Source: Deltaproteobacteria bacterium
GTDB taxonomy: Bacteria; Desulfobacterota; Desulfomonilia; UBA1062
Assembly (NCBI GenBank): GCA_018434685.1
Contig: JAHDOV010000004.1
Coordinates: 249,857 to 313,856 of the forward strand
Reading direction: 5' to 3'
Length of the DNA: 64,000 nt
Shown here: one piece after another, positions 1 to 9,641 of the stretch
Layout: each line of letters opens with the position of its first letter
Numbering within the stretch: position 1 is the stretch's first letter
Notes under the pieces: model-generated
The model's input: the letters and a program-made list of their open reading frames with translations, nothing else
Told to the model about the DNA's origin: nothing
Database searches by the model: none
Translations under genes and position numbers: made by a program

Positions 1-177
1 GTCATAGGTGTTCTTTCTGATGGCCTCGATCCCCTCTTCAGCCGTTTCAAAGGCATCGAGAGAACACCCTTCACCTGCAAAGAAGAGGCTCAGGGAATCC
101 CGGATCCACTCGTCATCATCGATGAGCAGGATCTTTAGGTCCTTGAGTTTTACAAAGAGATTGCCCGTTGTTTTCAT
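1..177 (-). CDS. Response regulator receiver-domain protein (partial, runs off the window's left edge)
   Basis: Not in ORF track. Manual translation from ATG at 177: MKTTGNLFVKLKDLKILLIDDDEWIRDSLSLFFAGEGCSLDAFETAEEGIEAIRKNTYD, a typical REC N-terminus (KILLIDDD). ATGA overlap with the upstream stop. Confidence 0.88.
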   Translation of the reverse strand, partial: MKTTGNLFVKLKDLKILLIDDDEWIRDSLSLFFAGEGCSLDAFETAEEGIEAIRKNTYD

Positions 178-1811
178 GACAAGATATCGTCCTTAAGCCG
201 TTGTCCTGACGCCTGTTGGGGCTCGGGTTTGTTGATGAGCTGAATATGCCGTTTCAGGTCCGTGCCATAGTTTTCCAGGGAAAAGGCGAGAGATTCCAGC
301 ATAACCTTTGCGTAGAGGGGATTGTATCGGGCCCATTTTCTGTTCTTGTCACAGAACTCGGACCGGCTCAGGGTGAATTCGACCCGGTCGAGGCCTTCGC
401 CGTAACTGCGCTTGTTCTCATGCATTTCTTCGATTTTCTGCCCGTAGCCGGTCTTCCACAGGTCGTCGGCAAGATCGGCAAAAACAGAGGAATACTCATC
501 GAGAGACCGGGTAATCTCCGGGTTTTTGACGAGGGCCTCTGCTCCTTTCTGGGTCGGACGGGCCTTGAACCTCGTGCAGGCGGTTCTCCAGATCTCTGGA
601 TTATCAATAAGCATACAGGGCCGCAGCAGGTTGTCGGTATGGGGCTGGTTCATCCGGATAAAGGTGAAAAACGGCGATTGGAGAGCCTCCACCAGGGTAC
701 ACTGATGGATGTTATGGGTTGCATGATGGGCAAAGATGCACGGCTCAACCTCTCCACGGCTGGTGATGTGTAGCAAACGCCTTCCGCCTGCGATACAGCC
801 ATGAACCGTTGGGGCATCGGTCAAGAAATCCATGAGGAACAAGGGATGCCTTTCGCGGTATTCCCTGATAAAGGAACCAATGTCCAGGCGCTGCTGCGGT
901 GTCGGCATGAGGCTGAGGTCAGGGTCTGACCCCTCGGGCATGAACAGGAAATTCCATCCGAACAACATCCCCTGCTTCTCCCAGAAATCCAGGAACTCAG
1001 GGGAGGTAAGGGTGTCATAATTTTTCGAGGTGAGCACGAAGGACATGCCGTACATGAGCGAGCGTCTTTTCAGGAGCGATACCGAAGCGAGCATCTGCTC
1101 GTATACCCCGTGGCCGAAGAGATCATCGGTGTCCTCCTTCGTGCCGGGAATTCTGAAGACCGGGACCATGTTTTTTTGTTCATGGAGTTGGTCTGCCATA
1201 TCGGGTGTGATGCAGGTCCCGTTGGTAAATATCAGGAACAGGCAGTCTCTATGGTTTGCGGCAATGCGGGAGAGGTCATCGAAGAGGAGAAAGGGTTCCC
1301 CTCCGACGATGGTGTAGAGGTGAACCCCGATTTCCTTGCCCCCCTTGATGATCCTGTCCAGTGCTTTCAGGTCCAGTTCGTTATCAGGTGCAGGCTTGAC
1401 GTCGGCTGTCTTTCCCCTGGGGGAGAGATTGTTTCTCATGGTCGGGCTGATCAGGATCGTGAAGGGAGGGCAGAACCCGTATTTTTTCTTGAGAAAATGC
1501 GCTTTTTCCATCCACTCCAGGACACAGCAGCCGAGGAAGGTTTCCACGAAGCTCTTGAGCTGACCGGGGTCTCTTGACAGGAGCTTCCGGAACGACTGGT
1601 TTGTGCCGGGGTGCGCCTGTATCCACCTCATCATTTTCCCGAACGGTCCCTGGGTACTGAACAGGGGATCCAGAGAGGCCAGCATTTTCATCAGGGTCCC
1701 CAGGTGATCATCAGGATTCTTCCGGAGAGTGTGGACAATAAAGTCTGCACTCTTGGCCAGCCCTGCCTGTCTGGAGTTGTTCTCCGCAGTGTCTTGTCTC
1801 CACATAGTCAT
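174..1811 (-). CDS. Radical SAM/SPASM(twitch)-like protein lacking the CxxxCxxC motif (probable pseudo-enzyme)
   Basis: Has ILISPTMR, GGEP, FTNG and GCIAGG..EPC..RPC motifs. The cluster motif position reads NNLSPRGK. Confidence 0.85.
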   Translation of the reverse strand: MTMWRQDTAENNSRQAGLAKSADFIVHTLRKNPDDHLGTLMKMLASLDPLFSTQGPFGKMMRWIQAHPGTNQSFRKLLSRDPGQLKSFVETFLGCCVLEWMEKAHFLKKKYGFCPPFTILISPTMRNNLSPRGKTADVKPAPDNELDLKALDRIIKGGKEIGVHLYTIVGGEPFLLFDDLSRIAANHRDCLFLIFTNGTCITPDMADQLHEQKNMVPVFRIPGTKEDTDDLFGHGVYEQMLASVSLLKRRSLMYGMSFVLTSKNYDTLTSPEFLDFWEKQGMLFGWNFLFMPEGSDPDLSLMPTPQQRLDIGSFIREYRERHPLFLMDFLTDAPTVHGCIAGGRRLLHITSRGEVEPCIFAHHATHNIHQCTLVEALQSPFFTFIRMNQPHTDNLLRPCMLIDNPEIWRTACTRFKARPTQKGAEALVKNPEITRSLDEYSSVFADLADDLWKTGYGQKIEEMHENKRSYGEGLDRVEFTLSRSEFCDKNRKWARYNPLYAKVMLESLAFSLENYGTDLKRHIQLINKPEPQQASGQRLKDDILS

Positions 1812-1894: not shown

Positions 1895-2356
1895 TCATGA
1901 TCCTATCCTCGTTGCTTGTTCTTCCTGGTACCCGACGATGGTGGCATGCACGATTTTGTCAAAAAAGAGATTCACGTAGGAGAAGAGCTCGGTGGTCTGG
2001 TTCAGGGCGTAGCCGTCGTCGAGGGATCTCTTTTCCGTGATGTAGCGGTAGATCTTTTTTTTAATGAGGAAGAGGACCTGGATGACCTCACCGAGGGGGA
2101 TTCCCTCCTTGGATCTTACCCTGCCGAGACCCGTATAGTAGGCAAAGACGACATTCTTTGAGGTGTTGTTGTGGAGCCAGCTGGAAAGCCGTTTATACAC
2201 GTTGTAAAGAACCTGGTGCAGCATTTCGTGCAGGATATCTTCCGGAAGATCACGGTAGTGCAGGGTCTCTTCCATGCTTCGAATTTCCGTGTTCAGCTCG
2301 TGGATCAGGAGTTCCTCGTTTTTTTCGATGAGCTCCATCAGGTTGTGGTAAAACAT
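1895..2356 (-). CDS. Stand-alone all-helical protein resembling RsbRD-N/non-heme globin-fold sensor domains
   Basis: 153 aa with YxxLGRxRxxEGIPLxEV and FFDKxxxxxxxGY patterns. AAGGAGG RBS upstream. Confidence 0.65.
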   Translation of the reverse strand: MFYHNLMELIEKNEELLIHELNTEIRSMEETLHYRDLPEDILHEMLHQVLYNVYKRLSSWLHNNTSKNVVFAYYTGLGRVRSKEGIPLGEVIQVLFLIKKKIYRYITEKRSLDDGYALNQTTELFSYVNLFFDKIVHATIVGYQEEQATRIGS

Positions 2357-2469: not shown

Positions 2470-2485
2470 AGCATAATACATGCCA
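2470..2485 (-). promoter_or_regulatory. sigma54 -24/-12 promoter for the leftward operon
   Basis: Minus strand TGGCATG-TATT-ATGCT, with correct GG-N10-GC spacing. Confidence 0.75.
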
Positions 2486-3091: not shown

Positions 3092-3325
3092 CCATATGGA
3101 AACCAGGATGCATCACCTGAGACCTCTTGTTTTTATCGTGCCGTTGGAAGGCCCAGGGCGGGAGGATATACACGGCAGTACGTTCTGGCATTTCCTTCAG
3201 GATGGTGCCCGGGGGATGAGCATGCCGGCATGCATAAGCCAGTTTTTCCCAGGGGGAGTCGCAGATATATAGTGTGAAAATTCGCTCAAAATGGTATAGG
3301 TTGGGGTAGGTTGCGGGGTGACGAG

Positions 3326-4726
3326 ATGACTCAACCAACATTATTCAAAGGCAAGTTGTCAAGGAAGAACAAGCACGAGGAAAACGAATCCATCTACCGT
3401 CAGTTTTTCGAAGGTTCTCCGGATGCGCTGTATGTGACGGACGCCGAAGGCGTGATTGTGAACGTGAACAAGGCGTTCATAGAGTTGTTCGGCTACACAA
3501 AAGAGGAGATCATCGGCCAAGACATCCGCACCATTTACGTTAGCGATGACGAGAAGACCCGGTTCTGGAAACAGATTAAAAAGGAAGGATCTCTGATTTC
3601 CGCCGAGGCCCGACTGGTCCGGAATGACAGGACCGTACTCATCTGTCAGCATTCCTGCTATGTGACTACGGATTCACGGGGGGATAGTGCGGCTTACACG
3701 GGCATTGTCCGGGATATTACCGCTGTCAGAAACGATCAGGAGGCGCTACGGAAAAAGACGCGGGAACTCTCCGACAAGGTCAAGGAACTCGATTGTCTCT
3801 ATGAGATCTCCACGGTCATAGAGAGGAAAGGGCACACCTTTGACGATATCGTCAAGGGCTTCCTGGAAGTCATTCCACGGGCAGTGAACTATTCCGGGAT
3901 TACCTGTGCCCGCATAACCCTCGACGGGGAGGTTTATACCAGCAGGAACTTTCAGCAGACCCCCTGGCGGATGGCCGTTGATATCATGTCGCGGTGTCAT
4001 CTCGTGGGTACCCTGGAAATCTTCTACCTTGAAGAGCGTCCGGCAAACCACTACGGCCCGTTTTCCGATGATGAGAAGCGGGTTGCCGAGATGATCTCGT
4101 CGAGACTCGGGAGATTGCTCGCCCGCAAACAGGCCGAAGAGATGCTCCGGGAAAGCGAGGAGAGATACCGGAGCCTCTTCGAGGATTCCCATGATGCCAT
4201 CTATACCACATCGCGAGACGGGATACTGCTGGACGCCAACCAGGCAACCCTGGACCTGTTCGGCTACAGCAGGGAAGAGATGATCGGCATGGATATCCAG
4301 CAGCTCTACGTGAACCTCCAGGAGCGGATGAAGTTCCAGACAGAGGTCGAGGAGCAGGGTTCCGTGAGAGACTATGATGTCTGGCTGAAGAAGAAGGATC
4401 GCTCCATCATGAACTGTCTTTACACCTCAAGCGTGAGGAGATCAAGAGAAGGAGAGGTCATCGGGTACCACTGCATCGTCAGGGACATCACCGAGCAGCG
4501 CCAGGCAGAGGAGGTGCGGCAGGGGCTCATAGAAGAGCTCACCGTAGCCCTGGAGAAGATCAAGACCCTGCGGGGCCTGATCCCTATCTGCGCCACCTGT
4601 AAGAAGATCCGCGACGACAGTGGGTACTGGAATCAGCTGGAAGAATATATCGAGGCCCATTCCGATGTGGTGTTCAGCCACGGGCTGTGCCCCCAGTGCC
4701 AGAGAAGATTCGAGGAAGACGACTGA
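3326..4726 (+). CDS. PAS-domain sensor protein with C-terminal Cys/His-rich module (no kinase domain)
   Basis: Two PAS/PAC domains ending in RDIT, a GAF-like middle region, and C-terminal PICATCKKIRD..YW..SHGLCPQC. ATG 3326 preferred over TTG 3311. Confidence 0.88.
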   Translation: MTQPTLFKGKLSRKNKHEENESIYRQFFEGSPDALYVTDAEGVIVNVNKAFIELFGYTKEEIIGQDIRTIYVSDDEKTRFWKQIKKEGSLISAEARLVRNDRTVLICQHSCYVTTDSRGDSAAYTGIVRDITAVRNDQEALRKKTRELSDKVKELDCLYEISTVIERKGHTFDDIVKGFLEVIPRAVNYSGITCARITLDGEVYTSRNFQQTPWRMAVDIMSRCHLVGTLEIFYLEERPANHYGPFSDDEKRVAEMISSRLGRLLARKQAEEMLRESEERYRSLFEDSHDAIYTTSRDGILLDANQATLDLFGYSREEMIGMDIQQLYVNLQERMKFQTEVEEQGSVRDYDVWLKKKDRSIMNCLYTSSVRRSREGEVIGYHCIVRDITEQRQAEEVRQGLIEELTVALEKIKTLRGLIPICATCKKIRDDSGYWNQLEEYIEAHSDVVFSHGLCPQCQRRFEEDD

Positions 4727-4755
4727 GGAGCCTTCTCAGGGAAGTCGACAAGAGA

Positions 4756-6294
4756 TCATGGTGCGGCAGGCTCCCTTTTTATGGGCAGCTCTATGATGAA
4801 TTGGGCACCGCCCAGCCGGCTTGCGGTTACCCTCAGCACGCCGCCGTGATCCGTAACGATCCTGCGGCAGAGACTCAATCCAATCCCGGTGCTGCCGTCT
4901 TTTGTGGTGTAGAACGGATCGAATATCTTGTGTCGTCTGTCCGGGGTAACCCCGGGGCCGGAATCTTCCACGCTCATGATGATGGATTCTCCCCGGGCGA
5001 ATGAGGATATCCTGATCTTCTTCCCCTCGTCCATATCCTTCATGGCCTCGGCTGCATTGGTTATGAGGTTCAGAATCACCTGCTCTATGAGCTGGGGGTC
5101 GGCATAGCACGGCGGGGTGTCCGTGCTGAGGCAGAGCTGAACCTCAACACCGGTCTTGCGCAGGGTGACCGAAGACAGCGCCAGGGCATCTTCGATGGGA
5201 TCGTTGATGGCGATACGGCTGAACCGGGGTTCGCTCGGTTTGGAAAAATCCATGACCCGCTTGATGACCGATTCGATCTTCAGCGAGGCCGAATGCATCT
5301 TTTCGAGAACATCCAGGGCTCTTTCCAGGCCATCTCCCCGCACCAGGATCTTTTCCAGGGCATCGAGGTAGATGTTGATACCTGACAGGGGGTTGCGTAT
5401 CTCGTGGGCTATGCCGGCAGCAACATGCCCGAGCGACGTCATCCGGTCCTGTACATGGAGGAGCCGTTCCAGTTCCCTGGCCATGGTAACATCCATGATA
5501 TTGATGAGGATCGCCGGGCTCCCCTGATATTCAATCGGGCTTGCACGACAGTGCAGCCACTTCATGTCATGGAGGTCGTCCCTGTTGCCATGGGGGAAAA
5601 ACCGCACGACCATGCCGGGGTGCTTTTCTTTTCCCGACAGGAGGTCCCTGTAGAGGGATTTCACCAGCGGGACATCATCGGGATGGATGTGCTCATACAC
5701 TGAGGGTGCATGGGTTATGGGGAGCGGTCCCAGGAGCCTCTGCTGTTCGGGATTCCGGTAAATGATCTGTTCGTCCTGAATGATGGAGATGCCGGTGAGG
5801 GAATACTCCACCAGTTCCCGGAAAAGTTGTTCGCTCTTGGTCAGGGCGTCCTGGGCCTGCCGGTACCCAGTGATATCATGGCCGGCGGAGATGACGGTGG
5901 CAGTGGGCAGCCTGAAGTTCGCCCACAGCTGGATGCGTGTGGAGCCGTCTTTGTTGGTAACACGATATTCGCGGAAGTTTCCGTCCGGATTGGTTTTATT
6001 CCGCAGGGCCCGCCCGTATTCCCGGGGATCGGGATACAGGATGGCCAGAGAATCATCGAAGGCCAGGAGTTCCTCTTTGCTCCACCCGAGCATTTTTTCA
6101 CACTGGGTATTCCACAGCAGGCACCGGCCCCGGGCGTCGAAGGCGTCAATCATGATCGGTGCCTTTTCAAAGATCGTCCTGAATTTCTCCTCGCTTTCCC
6201 TCAGAGACCGGATCGTCTCTTCCTGCAGGGCAATCTTTTCGGTCAGCTCCTCTAATCGGTTCTCCAGGTCTTTCCGTCTTGGTTTCGGCGCCAT
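4756..6294 (-). CDS. PAS-domain sensor histidine kinase (NtrB-like)
   Basis: AHEIRNPL H-box, NLITNA, DSGPG, FDPFYTTK and GTGIGL. GGAGG RBS before ATG 6294. Confidence 0.93.
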   Translation of the reverse strand: MAPKPRRKDLENRLEELTEKIALQEETIRSLRESEEKFRTIFEKAPIMIDAFDARGRCLLWNTQCEKMLGWSKEELLAFDDSLAILYPDPREYGRALRNKTNPDGNFREYRVTNKDGSTRIQLWANFRLPTATVISAGHDITGYRQAQDALTKSEQLFRELVEYSLTGISIIQDEQIIYRNPEQQRLLGPLPITHAPSVYEHIHPDDVPLVKSLYRDLLSGKEKHPGMVVRFFPHGNRDDLHDMKWLHCRASPIEYQGSPAILINIMDVTMARELERLLHVQDRMTSLGHVAAGIAHEIRNPLSGINIYLDALEKILVRGDGLERALDVLEKMHSASLKIESVIKRVMDFSKPSEPRFSRIAINDPIEDALALSSVTLRKTGVEVQLCLSTDTPPCYADPQLIEQVILNLITNAAEAMKDMDEGKKIRISSFARGESIIMSVEDSGPGVTPDRRHKIFDPFYTTKDGSTGIGLSLCRRIVTDHGGVLRVTASRLGGAQFIIELPIKREPAAP

Positions 6295-6685
6295 GGTCTC
6301 AGAACCTCCGCGTCCCAGCTGCTGTATGTCGGACATTCCCATCGTGGTGGTCCGGCGGGTACCCGTTGCGTGTGAACACCGGTTGTTTCATCAGAATATA
6401 GCAGATCTCACTCTAGGAATATTTTCCTTATAGGGCAAGGCTTTTTTATTCTGGCAGTTTTTGGGGCAGAGCGATTCGCTGGCGGAAGCAGGATAACGGT
6501 GCGGCTGAGCGACATTGATCGAGCGAGCAGCCTCGGTCGAAATTTCAGGGCAGGATGTAGTTTTCCCTTTTCATTTCGGCCTGATTTAGGTAAAAGAGCA
6601 CTTTTCCTCCCTGGTGGATTACTGCTGGAATATTTGAAAATGCGGTGCTAAGAAGGGGAAAAATTGCTTTAGAGAAGGTGTCACG

Positions 6686-7570
6686 ATGGAACATGCGATT
6701 AACAGGGCAAAGATCCTTGTTGAGGCGCTACCCTACATTCGGGATTTCAGGGGAAAGAAGATCGTCATCAAATATGGCGGGCACGCCATGGTGGACCCTG
6801 AATTGAAGAGGCTCTTCGCCCAGCAGATCATTCTCTTTCACTATATCGGCATCCATGTGGTCGTGGTGCACGGCGGGGGACCCCAGATATCAACCGTGCT
6901 GAACCAGATGGGTATCAAGTCGAGCTTTATCGACGGCAAACGGATCACCGATGCGCGGACCATGGATGTCGTGGAAATGGTGCTCGCCGGCGGTGTGAAC
7001 AAAGAGATCGTAAGCCTGATCAATTCCGAAGGAGGAAAAGCGGTGGGTCTGTCCGGCAAGGATGGCGGGCTGATCAGTGCACGCAAGCTCTACCTGTCGA
7101 GAAAAGACGCACAGGGGAACAAACTCACCGATGTCGATATGGGGCATGTGGGAGAGGTCACCCACATCAATCCCGATATCATCGAGGCAGTGGAAAAGGC
7201 CGGCTTTATCGCCGTGATCGCACCGTCCGGTGTGGGCGATGACGGCCTGACCTATAACATCAATGCAGATACCGTTGCTGCGGAAATTGCACGGCACCTC
7301 GGGGTCGCCAGGCTCATCATCCTCACGGACGAGAAAGGGGTGCTGGACAAGGATGGGAAATTAATATCGAGCATGCACTGCGGCGAGATCCCGGAGCTCA
7401 TATCCTCGGGGACCGTGACGGGAGGGATGATTCCCAAGCTGGAGTGCTGCATACGGGCCCTTGACGGAGGGGTGATGAAGGCTCATATCCTCGACGGCAG
7501 GATCCCCTATTCGATCCTCCTGGAACTCTTTACGCACTCGGGTATCGGCACGCAGATCATCAAGGAGTAA
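6686..7570 (+). CDS. argB: Acetylglutamate kinase
   Basis: VIKYGG, VHGGGPQI, NINAD, GGMIPK. Confidence 0.97.
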   Translation: MEHAINRAKILVEALPYIRDFRGKKIVIKYGGHAMVDPELKRLFAQQIILFHYIGIHVVVVHGGGPQISTVLNQMGIKSSFIDGKRITDARTMDVVEMVLAGGVNKEIVSLINSEGGKAVGLSGKDGGLISARKLYLSRKDAQGNKLTDVDMGHVGEVTHINPDIIEAVEKAGFIAVIAPSGVGDDGLTYNINADTVAAEIARHLGVARLIILTDEKGVLDKDGKLISSMHCGEIPELISSGTVTGGMIPKLECCIRALDGGVMKAHILDGRIPYSILLELFTHSGIGTQIIKE

Positions 7571-7575
7571 ACGAC

Positions 7576-8739
7576 GTGAGCTATGTAATGGAGACGTATT
7601 CCCGGTTGCCGATCAGGCTTGTTCGAGGCAAAGGCTGCCGGGTCTGGGACGACGAGGGAAACGAGTACCTCGACATGATTTCAGGTATTGCCGTATGTAA
7701 TCTCGGACATGCCCATCCGGCAGTGGTAAGGGCGTTGAGGGATCAGGCGGGCGAGCTGTTCCACTGCTCGAACCTCTACCGCATCCCCCAGCAGGAACTC
7801 CTGGCCCGGATGCTTGCCGAGAATGCCTTTGACTCCCGGGCCTTTTTCTGCAACTCCGGTGCCGAGGCGAACGAAGCGGCCATAAAGCTCGCGAGACGAT
7901 TCTGCAATTCTTCAGGGAAGCGGGGATCTCACATCATCACCTTCGAGGGATCCTTCCATGGCAGAACGCTCGCAACCGTTGCCGCCACCGGCCAGGGAAA
8001 GTTCAGGAAGGGGTTTGATCCTATCCCTTCGGGATTTTCCACGGTCCCCTATGGAGACATCGATGCGCTCGAAGCAGCCATTGACGAGAGGGTTGGCGCG
8101 GTCATGCTGGAAGCTATCCAGGGCGAAGGGGGCATCAGGATTCCACCCGCAGGGTTCCTGCAGCGGGTCAGGCAGCTCTGCGACGAAAAAGGCCTGCTCA
8201 TGATCCTCGATGAGGTGCAGACCGGAATGGGCAGGACCGGCAAGCTGTTCGGGTACATGCATGAAGAAGTCGTTCCGGATATCATGACCATGGCAAAGGC
8301 CCTGGGCAACGGGTTCCCGGTGGGGGCCATGATCGCAAAGCCCCACGTGGCAGAGGCCTTTACCCCGGGATCGCATGCCTCGACCTTTGGCGGCAACCCC
8401 CTGGCCATGGCATCGTCCATTGCAACGCTCAACGTCATGATCGAGGAGCGCATACCGGAAAAGAGCTGTGAGCAGGGACGCTGCTTCGTGGATCGTCTCG
8501 GCAGGCTCAAGGCATCTCACCCGGCCATCACGGCCATCAGGGGCAGGGGGCTCATGATCGGTGTCGAATTCGATGCCGACATCGCCACGCTCAATGCCGA
8601 AGGTCTGAAAAAGGGCATTCTCCTCAACATCATCCAGGGGCGCATCCTCAGGCTTGCACCCCCGCTCGTGATCACCACTGAGGAGATCGACGAGGCCATC
8701 GAAAAGATACATGCCGTTCTTACGGAAAAGGGGTTATGA
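7576..8739 (+). CDS. argD: Acetylornithine aminotransferase
   Basis: NSGAEANE, SFHGRT, DEVQTG, AKALGNG, HASTFGGNP. Confidence 0.95.
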   Translation: MSYVMETYSRLPIRLVRGKGCRVWDDEGNEYLDMISGIAVCNLGHAHPAVVRALRDQAGELFHCSNLYRIPQQELLARMLAENAFDSRAFFCNSGAEANEAAIKLARRFCNSSGKRGSHIITFEGSFHGRTLATVAATGQGKFRKGFDPIPSGFSTVPYGDIDALEAAIDERVGAVMLEAIQGEGGIRIPPAGFLQRVRQLCDEKGLLMILDEVQTGMGRTGKLFGYMHEEVVPDIMTMAKALGNGFPVGAMIAKPHVAEAFTPGSHASTFGGNPLAMASSIATLNVMIEERIPEKSCEQGRCFVDRLGRLKASHPAITAIRGRGLMIGVEFDADIATLNAEGLKKGILLNIIQGRILRLAPPLVITTEEIDEAIEKIHAVLTEKGL

Positions 8740-9641
8740 TGGAACACCGGGATTTTCTTTCCATTACCGATCTGTCTCCGGAAGAAATACAGCAGGTCTT
8801 CTCCAGTGCACAGGAGCATAAACGCGCTCTGCCGCAGCAGTGTCTGTTGGGCAAATCCGTGGTCCTCATTTTCGAGAAGGCCTCCACCAGGACGCGGATC
8901 TCCTTTGAAGTGGGTGTGGCCAGAATGGGGGGGCACCCCATTGTGCTGACCCCCCAGGGTTCACAGATGGGACGGGGAGAGCCTTTGCGTGATACCGCTC
9001 GGATCCTGGCCGGATACTGCGACTGTATCGTGATGAGGACCTTCGGCCACGACCGGGTGGAGGAAATGGCACACTTCGCCGATGTCCCGGTGATCAATGC
9101 ACTGACCGATCTCCTCCATCCGTGCCAGGTCCTTGCCGACTGTTTCACCCTGACGCAGCGTTTCGAAGATCTCGCAGGCAGGAAGGTGGCCTGGATAGGG
9201 GACGGCAACAACATGGCGAACTCCTGGATCAATGCCGCCGCAGCACTGGGTTTTGAACTCGCGCTTGCCTGTCCGAAAGGGTACGATCCCGACGAGGCCG
9301 TGCTGAGCGCTGCAGTGGAACGCGGCGCGAAGGTGCGTATTGTCAGGGATCCTGCCGAGGCGGCCTCGGGTGCCATTGCCGTAAACACCGATGTCTGGGC
9401 AAGCATGGGGCAGGAAGACGAGGCCGGCAGCCGCAAGGGGGTTTTCGAGGCCTTCCAGGTAACGCAGGCACTCATGGACCGGGCCGCACCGGATGCGGTG
9501 TTCATGCACTGCCTGCCTGCCCACCGGGGTGAAGAGGTAACGGAAGACGTGCTGGAGGGAAGCGGGTCGATCGTGTGGGAACAGGCACAGAACAGGCTCT
9601 ATGTACAGGAAGCCATTGTTGAGTTCTTATTAAGACAATAG
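8736..9641 (+). CDS. argF: Ornithine carbamoyltransferase
   Basis: STRTR, HPCQ, HCLP. Confidence 0.97.

Follow-up and report, generated by a model that had tools for sequence, protein, structure and literature searches.

The DNA analysed here, called the window throughout, is a stretch of 64,000 nucleotides from the genome of a Deltaproteobacteria bacterium (contig JAHDOV010000004.1 of assembly GCA_018434685.1). At its left end, on the reverse strand, lies a gene for a homologue of radical S-adenosylmethionine (SAM, or AdoMet) enzymes in which all three cysteines that should hold the catalytic iron-sulphur (Fe-S) cluster are replaced. The gene follows one for a stand-alone protein with a sensor-globin fold and precedes one for a single-domain response regulator, and the three stand downstream of a sigma54-type promoter-like site (Table 1). 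We refer to the genome holding the window as G000, to its radical SAM homologue as P0001, and to four other species of the same genus as G001 to G004.

Table 1. Features at the left end of the window (positions in nucleotides of the window; pLDDT, predicted local distance difference test; AF2, AlphaFold2)
Feature	Position	Strand	Basis or remark
Start of 137-aa single-domain response regulator	1..177	-	Pfam Response_reg 2.7e-24; gene runs 237 nt past the left edge (L022 9764-10177)
P0001, radical SAM/twitch-like homologue	174..1811	-	545 aa, open frame, zero stops
Auxiliary-cluster domain of P0001	615..797	-	C339 (797-795), C358 (740-738), C399 (617-615); the family's only three invariant C-terminal Cys
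L330, replaces family Trp in DFW-x-DAP	822..824	-	also replaced in 2/3 other triad-less lineages
F232, Arg in 119/119 aligned homologues (SkfB R223)	1116..1118	-	alignment
R220, family Ser ribose-motif position (SkfB S211)	1152..1154	-	change common to intact sisters
GGEP (residues 170-173), retained 'GGE' AdoMet motif	1293..1304	-	invariant in family alignments; kept in every triad-less lineage
Degenerate cluster loop N127-N-L-S-P131-R-G-K134-T135, replacing C-N-L-x-C-x-G-C-Y	1407..1433	-	alignments; codon reading
153-aa stand-alone protein of sensor-globin fold, encoded first in the operon	1895..2356	-	Pfam HisK_N E 0.007 (weak); AF2 pLDDT 87
Sigma54-type promoter-like site TGGCAT-N5-ATGCT	2470..2485	-	about 115 nt upstream of the globin gene
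Divergent PAS-PAS protein, Cys-rich C-terminal tail	3311..4726	+	syntenic in G001, G003
PAS histidine kinase	4756..6342	-	syntenic in G001, G003

The degenerate cluster loop

P0001 has N127, P131 and K134 in place of the CX3CX2C triad of the radical SAM superfamily (PF04055). Homologues were collected from 5.8 billion protein clusters, which yielded 7321 candidates and, among these, 1548 relatives at E ≤ 0.001; the best 120 were listed. The loop is covered by 116 of the 119 listed homologues, and Cys is found at column 127 in 116/116, at column 131 in 116/116 and at column 134 in 115/116, the sole exception being P0019 (CNLKCRGR), which has lost only the third Cys.

At the DNA level the triad codons of P0001 are AAC, CCC and AAG, as opposed to TGC or TGT in orthologues from the same genus, i.e., 2–3 substitutions per Cys codon, and restoring the triad would take at least seven base changes. 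The residues around it (R126, N128, L129, G133 and A136) are retained in frame, and a reading by eye of the other two frames of the loop DNA finds no Cys motif in either. Because the changes are this many and in frame, with kept flanks and no Cys motif in the other frames, a frameshift, a hidden frame or a single error is rejected as the cause, both by the reading of the DNA and by the codon alignment. An earlier note on this DNA had described an open reading frame (ORF) with NNLSPRGK where relatives have CNLxCxGC, and had argued from the two to three base changes needed at each codon that this was neither a single sequencing error nor a frameshift. Both statements hold, with codons 127-134 at window 1433-1410, and the GGEP, FTNG, GCIAGG (C339), EPC (C358) and RPC (C399) motifs that it listed are all present in the ORF. 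The drift it saw from the usual motif to RIPG..TDDLFG is also in the sequence, but part of this is unconnected with the loss, as discussed below. The C-terminal helical tail that it called 'extra' turned out to be ordinary, being found in all near relatives of 520–550 aa.

The genome assembly has a size of 4.29 Mb in 58 contigs and is 99.19% complete, and all or part of the stretch is contained in 20 public sequencing runs from 12 studies. None of the runs so listed is an RNA run, which carries no weight either way on expression. For a comparison between strains we used contigs from four runs of four studies (X2, X3, X7 and X9), excluding the run that may be the source of the assembly. These contigs are about 97% identical to the window DNA with zero indels, and 40 of their 150 differences were listed. 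Record 6 of X2 spans 1375-1552, i.e., 178 nt including the motif, with 4 differences; because at least seven would be needed, this contig cannot encode the triad. Record 15 of X3 and record 23 of X7 also span the loop, and none of the 40 listed differences falls between 1363 and 1710. The Cys-less loop is thus real, an assembly artefact is ruled out, and the same type of allele occurs in other metagenomes. The strain contigs also bear on the start of the gene: codon 1 (ATG, in the 1803-1811 region of the window) is ACG in the contigs of three of the four runs (X3, X7 and X9), which makes Met3 the likelier start, and a Shine-Dalgarno-like run, GGAAAGGGG, lies 9 nt ahead of it. The true start is therefore probably Met3 at window 1805, which would give a protein of 543 aa.

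To place the loop in the context of the whole protein we selected the columns with a conservation of 90% or more across the listed homologues, 83 in all. P0001 retains 76 of these, the seven deviations being C127N, C131P, C134K, Y135T, S220R, R232F and W330L. In leave-one-out counts the family members have 0–11 deviations each and the four intact sisters 5–10, as compared with 7 in P0001. The number of deviations is in other words ordinary, and it is their placement that stands out. The family profile aligns to the structurally characterized enzyme SkfB at E 1.9e-22, and in this alignment family positions 127, 131, 134, 135, 220, 232 and 170-172 correspond to SkfB C117, C121, C124, Y125, S211, R223 and G160-E162. 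The SkfB structure paper (PMC6231123) gives C117, C121 and C124 as cluster ligands, Y125 as a residue that helps to orient the adenine, S211 as the ribose motif, G160-E162 as the GGE motif, and R223 as binding the AdoMet carboxylate as well as its ribose. Five of the six changes at conserved columns that are private to P0001 (C127N, C131P, C134K, Y135T and R232F) therefore sit on positions that ligate the cluster or contact AdoMet in SkfB. Even with the triad Cys set aside, the changes affect 2 of the 6 remaining contact columns but only 1 of the other 74 (p about 0.014, hypergeometric). Beyond the triad, P0001 thus lacks three residues that contact AdoMet, namely the Ser, the Arg and the aromatic one that follows the third Cys, having S220R, R232F and Y135T at these positions. 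Of these, S220R, which is the Arg of the RIPG string in the earlier note, is not part of the loss because the intact sister orthologues share it, and in other strains the same codon reads Lys (a variant at window 1153).

The rest of the fold is predicted with confidence. The AF2 model of P0001 has a mean pLDDT of 92.0 and a predicted template modelling score of 0.93, while the former cluster loop (131-140) has a mean pLDDT of only 65. The radical SAM core and its GGE motif are both recognizable (GGEP at residues 170-173; pLDDT 92 for the model; Z 23.5 to SuiB). At the sequence level the matches are weaker: residues 141-251 match Pfam Radical_SAM with 27.2 bits versus a cut-off of 29.5, the score being under the cut-off because the N-terminal motif is absent from the match, and a phmmer search of the PDB with the single P0001 sequence returned zero chains at E up to 0.01. 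The C-terminal domain scores 16.8 bits for Pfam SPASM (PF13186), for which the cut-off is 21.5. SPASM is a seven-Cys motif that binds two auxiliary clusters. The whole family has three invariant C-terminal Cys only, so neither P0001 nor its relatives have the seven. The domain is better called twitch-like, with one cluster. Among the remaining Cys of P0001, C95, C200 and C487 are private, whereas C96 and C114 are common to the intact relatives. C200 directly follows the TNG motif, where 98 of the 119 homologues have Leu.

Selection on the gene and loss of the triad elsewhere in the family

A second, intact copy is not found in G000: across the whole 99%-complete genome the next match to P0001 has 26% identity and E 2.9e-4. 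Among 40 related genomes, 20 match P0001 at E ≤ 1e-20. Both G001 and G003 carry a positional orthologue whose CNLxCPSC motif is intact and whose neighbours on either side are the same as in G000, whereas G002 (79% complete) and G004 (94% complete) have no match to P0001 and no orthologue of the adjacent globin gene, for which the best matches have 43–45% identity. In a 49-row tree P0001 groups with P0002, P0003, P0004 and P0007 with a support of 100 in the Shimodaira-Hasegawa-like approximate likelihood ratio test. The earlier note had suggested looking for a Cys-less clade around P0001; we find none, and the nearest relatives, at 60–64% identity, all have the triad. The intact sister clade (P0002, P0003, P0004 and P0007) has itself drifted at conserved columns (ribose-motif Ser to Arg, CxGC to CPSC, A136S and H362R), and its members may not be typical enzymes of the family either.

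Taken as a whole, the protein shows no sign that constraint has been relaxed. In the same tree P0001 has an end branch of 0.50, compared with 0.31–0.55 for the paths to its sisters (0.23 + 0.08–0.32). Tajima relative-rate tests with four sisters and five outgroups give a chi-square above 3.84 in 2 of 20 cases, with unique-change counts such as 62 vs 58, 57 vs 65 and 49 vs 50. Rough estimates of the ratio of nonsynonymous to synonymous rates (dN/dS) by the NG86 method are 0.155 for G000-G001 and 0.132 for G000-G003, and the intact pair G001-G003 gives 0.135. The identities of the radical SAM homologue (60.6% for G000-G001 and 77.3% for G001-G003) stand in ratios that accord with those of the neighbour genes, for which the figures are 70–80% and 84–89%. 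On the shorter scale of strains, 29 of the 40 listed differences are inside the ORF, 17 of them synonymous and 12 nonsynonymous, and the ratio of polymorphisms per site (pN/pS) from those 29 sites is 0.20 (binomial p 2e-5 vs neutrality). Purifying selection, another point that the earlier note had proposed to examine, is thus borne out by the strain ratio, by dN/dS of 0.13–0.16 and by the 18 of 20 rate tests that are non-significant. P0001 is a homologue of active enzymes that lacks catalytic residues and is kept by purifying selection, which are the two marks of a pseudoenzyme that were tested, and judging by its sequence it appears to be a real pseudoenzyme under selection.

The loss is not confined to this genus. 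We scanned every collected family protein for a Cys triad upstream of GGE. The first scan covered 343 proteins, of which 8 have no CX3CX2C: P0001, P0019, P0167, P0178, P0203, P0212, P0217 and P0234. Of these, P0217 is a 340-aa fragment and P0019 is the partial loss mentioned above. P0167 and P0178 are distant members that keep three Cys as CX5CX2C (CNMVPICDSC and CNINPPCAGC). A second search, seeded with three triad-less proteins, found 4 without the triad among the best 120 listed, of which P0390 was new. On a tree of 97 rows, five changes account for the six triad-deficient rows, and well-supported branches force at least that many: P0203 and P0390, with a mutual identity of 70%, form a clade with support 100, and the nearest relatives of the remaining triad-deficient rows are intact. 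Every triad-deficient lineage has kept GGEP and C339, C358 and C399. All four lineages with full loss have another residue in place of Y135 and of S220; three of them have one in place of W330, and in three R232 is either replaced or missing. Independent loss of the triad has thus occurred in at least three other lineages, with an almost identical pattern of residues, and this convergence suggests that the family can arrive repeatedly at a form with the auxiliary-cluster domain but without the SAM site.

The operon and its neighbourhood

The radical SAM homologue ends in a stop codon that shares nucleotides with the ATG of the response regulator (ATGA), and the two genes appear to be translationally coupled. 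In G001, G003 and G011, too, an orthologue of the receiver gene comes directly behind the intact gene. Relative to CheY, the 137-aa receiver has what we take to be the acidic pocket, the acceptor Asp, the Thr and the Lys. A predicted complex of P0001 with this receiver has a score of 0.00, which gives no verdict and no weight either way.

The 153-aa model of the first gene product is matched by Foldseek to globin-coupled sensor domains, to pXO2-61 (TMt 0.79) and pXO1-118 (0.72), and to RsbR-N. The two pXO proteins are non-heme globins of B. anthracis that reportedly bind fatty acid, and the four homologues of the window protein that were aligned have no invariant His. The promoter-like site belongs to an island, TGGCAY-N5-TATGCTGT, that is kept in G000, G001 and G003 amid diverged intergenic DNA.

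Sensor globins of this kind are not unique to the operon, as each genome of the genus has 3–6 paralogues. One of them in G000 (L110 392-880, on G000:C1) encodes a 162-aa protein with 38% identity and stands tail-to-tail with an Lrp/AhbA-like gene, behind which come an AhbD/NirJ-like radical SAM gene and hemB.

Further to the right, the tail of the PAS-PAS protein (CATCKKIRDD…HGLCPQC) takes the place of a kinase or known output domain, and the protein is 73% identical in G001 and G003. In these two species the genes for the PAS kinase and the PAS-PAS protein are separated by one for a 469-aa NtrC-type response regulator, i.e., a sigma54 activator (L023 4157-5566 and L024 3701-5110). G000 has no NtrC-type gene at this point (window about 4726-4756). 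The closest homologue in this genome has 68% identity and lies on a different contig (G000:C36:163165-164550), and the NtrC-type query matches G000 at 31 places with E ≤ 1e-40. The kinase gene is followed by argB, argD and argF on the forward strand (window 6686-9641), in the same order as in G001 and G003. Just past the left edge of the window a forward-strand gene (L022 7279-9738) encodes an 819-aa fusion of a 4Fe-4S ferredoxin, a GltD-like pyridine-nucleotide oxidoreductase and a nitroreductase; it converges on the receiver gene and is syntenic in G001 and G003.

Family assignment and a possible role without radical chemistry

The databases do not name the family. Pfam and NCBIfam give generic radical SAM/SPASM matches only, for intact members as well, with no family-specific NCBIfam model, and the ESM Atlas has generic 'radical SAM/SPASM' clusters only. 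The named matches come from anaerobes: Dictyoglomus, Thermotogota, Caldisericia, Synergistaceae, Armatimonadota, Chloroflexota and Actinomycetota, together with many Clostridia, Thermodesulfobacteriota, Patescibacteria and Woesearchaeota. Mss, the bacterial membrane-spanning lipid synthase, is described as a radical SAM enzyme of anaerobes only and a remote relative of Tes (Sahonero-Canavesi et al. 2022, PMC13159169), with homologues in a range that includes Dictyoglomi and Woesearchaeia (PMC13159169; PMC11868695). The reference proteins given there are Tmari_0825 of T. maritima (PMC13159169) and WP_129545148.1 of T. ethanolicus (accession from PMC11214058), and the homology threshold of the authors is E ≤ 1e-50 with identity ≥ 30% (PMC13159169). 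Dictyoglomus P0109 matches P0001 at E 2.5e-88 with 38% identity, and a search with the family profile extends to GDGT-MAS (E 1.3e-9). A search seeded from a Clostridium locus returned Clostridium-type relatives only and did not reach Thermoanaerobacter. Because the taxon range of the family fits the published range of Mss in unusual detail, and given the Dictyoglomus match, we consider it likely that the family is Mss.

P0001 would thus share with Mss an origin among radical SAM proteins restricted to anaerobes. It differs in lacking CxxxCxxC, for which reason no SAM-dependent tail-to-tail coupling is predicted. The genus-level clade, intact members included, also differs in being placed in a signalling operon, and the available text on Mss (PMC13159169) mentions none. 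The best structural and profile matches of P0001 are SkfB, SuiB and anSME, i.e., twitch/SPASM enzymes with solved structures. The model matches SuiB with Z 23.5 at a root-mean-square deviation (rmsd) of 3.4 over 304 aligned residues and SkfB with Z 23.4, with the AdoMet motifs of SkfB aligning column for column. These three are however peptide-modifying enzymes with 15–18% identity to P0001, which in addition has a helical N-terminal domain of 110 residues and a helical C-terminal tail that belong to its own family; it lacks a SAM cluster, and its conserved auxiliary Cys number only three. Tes/GDGT-MAS (PDB 7TOL/7TOM) shares the radical SAM core, auxiliary clusters and a lipid-tail substrate, with Z 16.2 and rmsd 3.4 over 243 residues, but is far more distant than P0001's own family, and these matches, which are weaker than those to the peptide-modifying enzymes, neither support nor exclude a lipid substrate.

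The reading we favour, and which we think rather more probable than not to be correct, is that P0001 is a radical-dead orthologue of a widespread family of anaerobes, with one twitch-like auxiliary cluster and probably Mss, that is kept for a non-catalytic role. Judging from the lost residues, the protein would no longer form the 5'-deoxyadenosyl radical, and it would be retained for a job that does not require it. This agrees with the proposal of the earlier note that P0001 is catalytically dead with an auxiliary cluster, in that a canonical SAM cluster cannot be held while the three auxiliary Cys are kept; its further step to a sensor, scaffold or regulatory partner is conjectural. A sensor role is plausible, and our conjecture is that P0001 could be the ligand- or redox-binding part of a receiver/globin signalling module, since it is coupled to a receiver, stands behind a non-heme sensor globin and is under a sigma54-type promoter. 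One could go further and regard the same-pattern losses, in at least four independent lineages, as a new class of Fe-S/lipid-binding signalling proteins that report the state of the membrane lipids or of redox together with globin and receiver, but this extension is tentative and we would not expect it to hold.

Several observations weigh against parts of this reading. The globin, receiver and PAS/kinase context also flanks the intact orthologues and is therefore a property of the clade rather than of the Cys-less form, and the absence of the whole locus from two of four congeners makes the module dispensable in the genus. That P0001 would still fold and bind its auxiliary Fe-S cluster, and would probably still bind the hydrophobic ligand of the family, is drawn from conserved residues alone. 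The long-range dN/dS values are rough because dS for the pairs that involve G000 is 1.8–2.1, near saturation, and the pN/pS of close strains is no guide to the date of the loss. Retention of the Cys-less loop is certain only for X2, with X3 and X7 resting on the absence of listed differences between 1363 and 1710 and X9 lacking coverage of the motif.

Some of the same facts would fit a recent inactivation, in which the enzyme became dispensable and P0001 is on its way to a pseudogene with too little time for stops to appear: the locus was not found in the genomes of G002 and G004, and triad losses in the family include sporadic singletons (P0212, P0234 and partially P0019). However, each Cys codon carries its two or three substitutions beside conserved neighbours, the rate of P0001 is not accelerated and its dN/dS is the same as for the intact pair, strains with the allele still show the low pN/pS, the 1638 nt are free of stops and frameshifts with no indels in the contigs of other studies, and the great majority of the conserved columns is retained, all of which makes ongoing decay decidedly unlikely. 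Alternatively P0001 could still be an enzyme that works independently of a SAM cluster, for example by an auxiliary-cluster redox or lyase step on the same lipid substrate or by binding SAM or methionine through GGEP without radical chemistry. That each lineage which independently became triad-less still has GGEP and the three auxiliary Cys suggests that selection retains those elements, and a figure legend in a review (PMC13459092) has an auxiliary [Fe4S4]-dependent mechanism as proposed for Tes and postulated for Mss. On the other hand, the full-text literature search gave no precedent for such chemistry, the lost Arg232 and Tyr135 are AdoMet contacts in SkfB and thus argue against binding of SAM, and the operon has no second enzyme able to supply a radical, so that we regard this explanation as unlikely, if less so than decay.

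The two remaining explanations would take back the loss itself. If the SAM-cluster site had been rebuilt from the private C95 and C200 together with C96 and C114, radical chemistry could persist, and it is true that C95, C200 and C487 are private and that C200 replaces the common Leu right after TNG. But C96 and C114 are also present in the intact relatives, the AdoMet-contact positions 135 and 232 are changed as well, and the other triad-less lineages show no such compensation; this makes a rebuilt site highly improbable. Since the genome was assembled from a metagenome, is split into 58 contigs and may itself derive from the best-matching run, an artefact of assembly or sequencing might be suspected, but given the in-frame multi-base substitutions and the agreement of contigs from four other studies, with the few differences of X2 over the motif, it is barely conceivable.

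Returning to P0001 as a protein retained without radical chemistry, precedents are scarce. A full-text literature search for radical SAM pseudoenzymes found no paper that, by its title or abstract, concerns a non-catalytic member, and the only precedent we met is a family name, the curated 'pseudo-SAM/SPASM protein' TIGR04347, whose likeness is judged by the NCBIfam name alone. P0001 scores 27.3 bits for this model versus a cut-off of 525 and is not a member, so the two belong to different families and are of independent origin. Radical SAM proteins are among the largest enzyme superfamilies, and the present locus provides a natural experiment in which an intact (G001 and G003) and a cluster-less (G000) orthologue can be compared in the same operon of sister species. 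It raises the questions of what an auxiliary Fe-S/twitch domain is capable of on its own, and what selection keeps after radical chemistry is lost. Should the family prove to be Mss, metagenomic surveys in which Mss homologues are taken as a capacity for membrane-spanning lipids, the precursors of branched glycerol dialkyl glycerol tetraethers (brGDGT), would over-count such genomes.

A separate observation concerns DUF2229, which PMC13159169 names in the architecture of the Ger enzyme and which was the single domain of that architecture searched for. It scores above the cut-off in all 5 genomes of the genus searched, and in G000 it lies in two long ORFs of 1416 and 1393 aa (G000:C56:48961-49605 and G000:C36:100685-101323).

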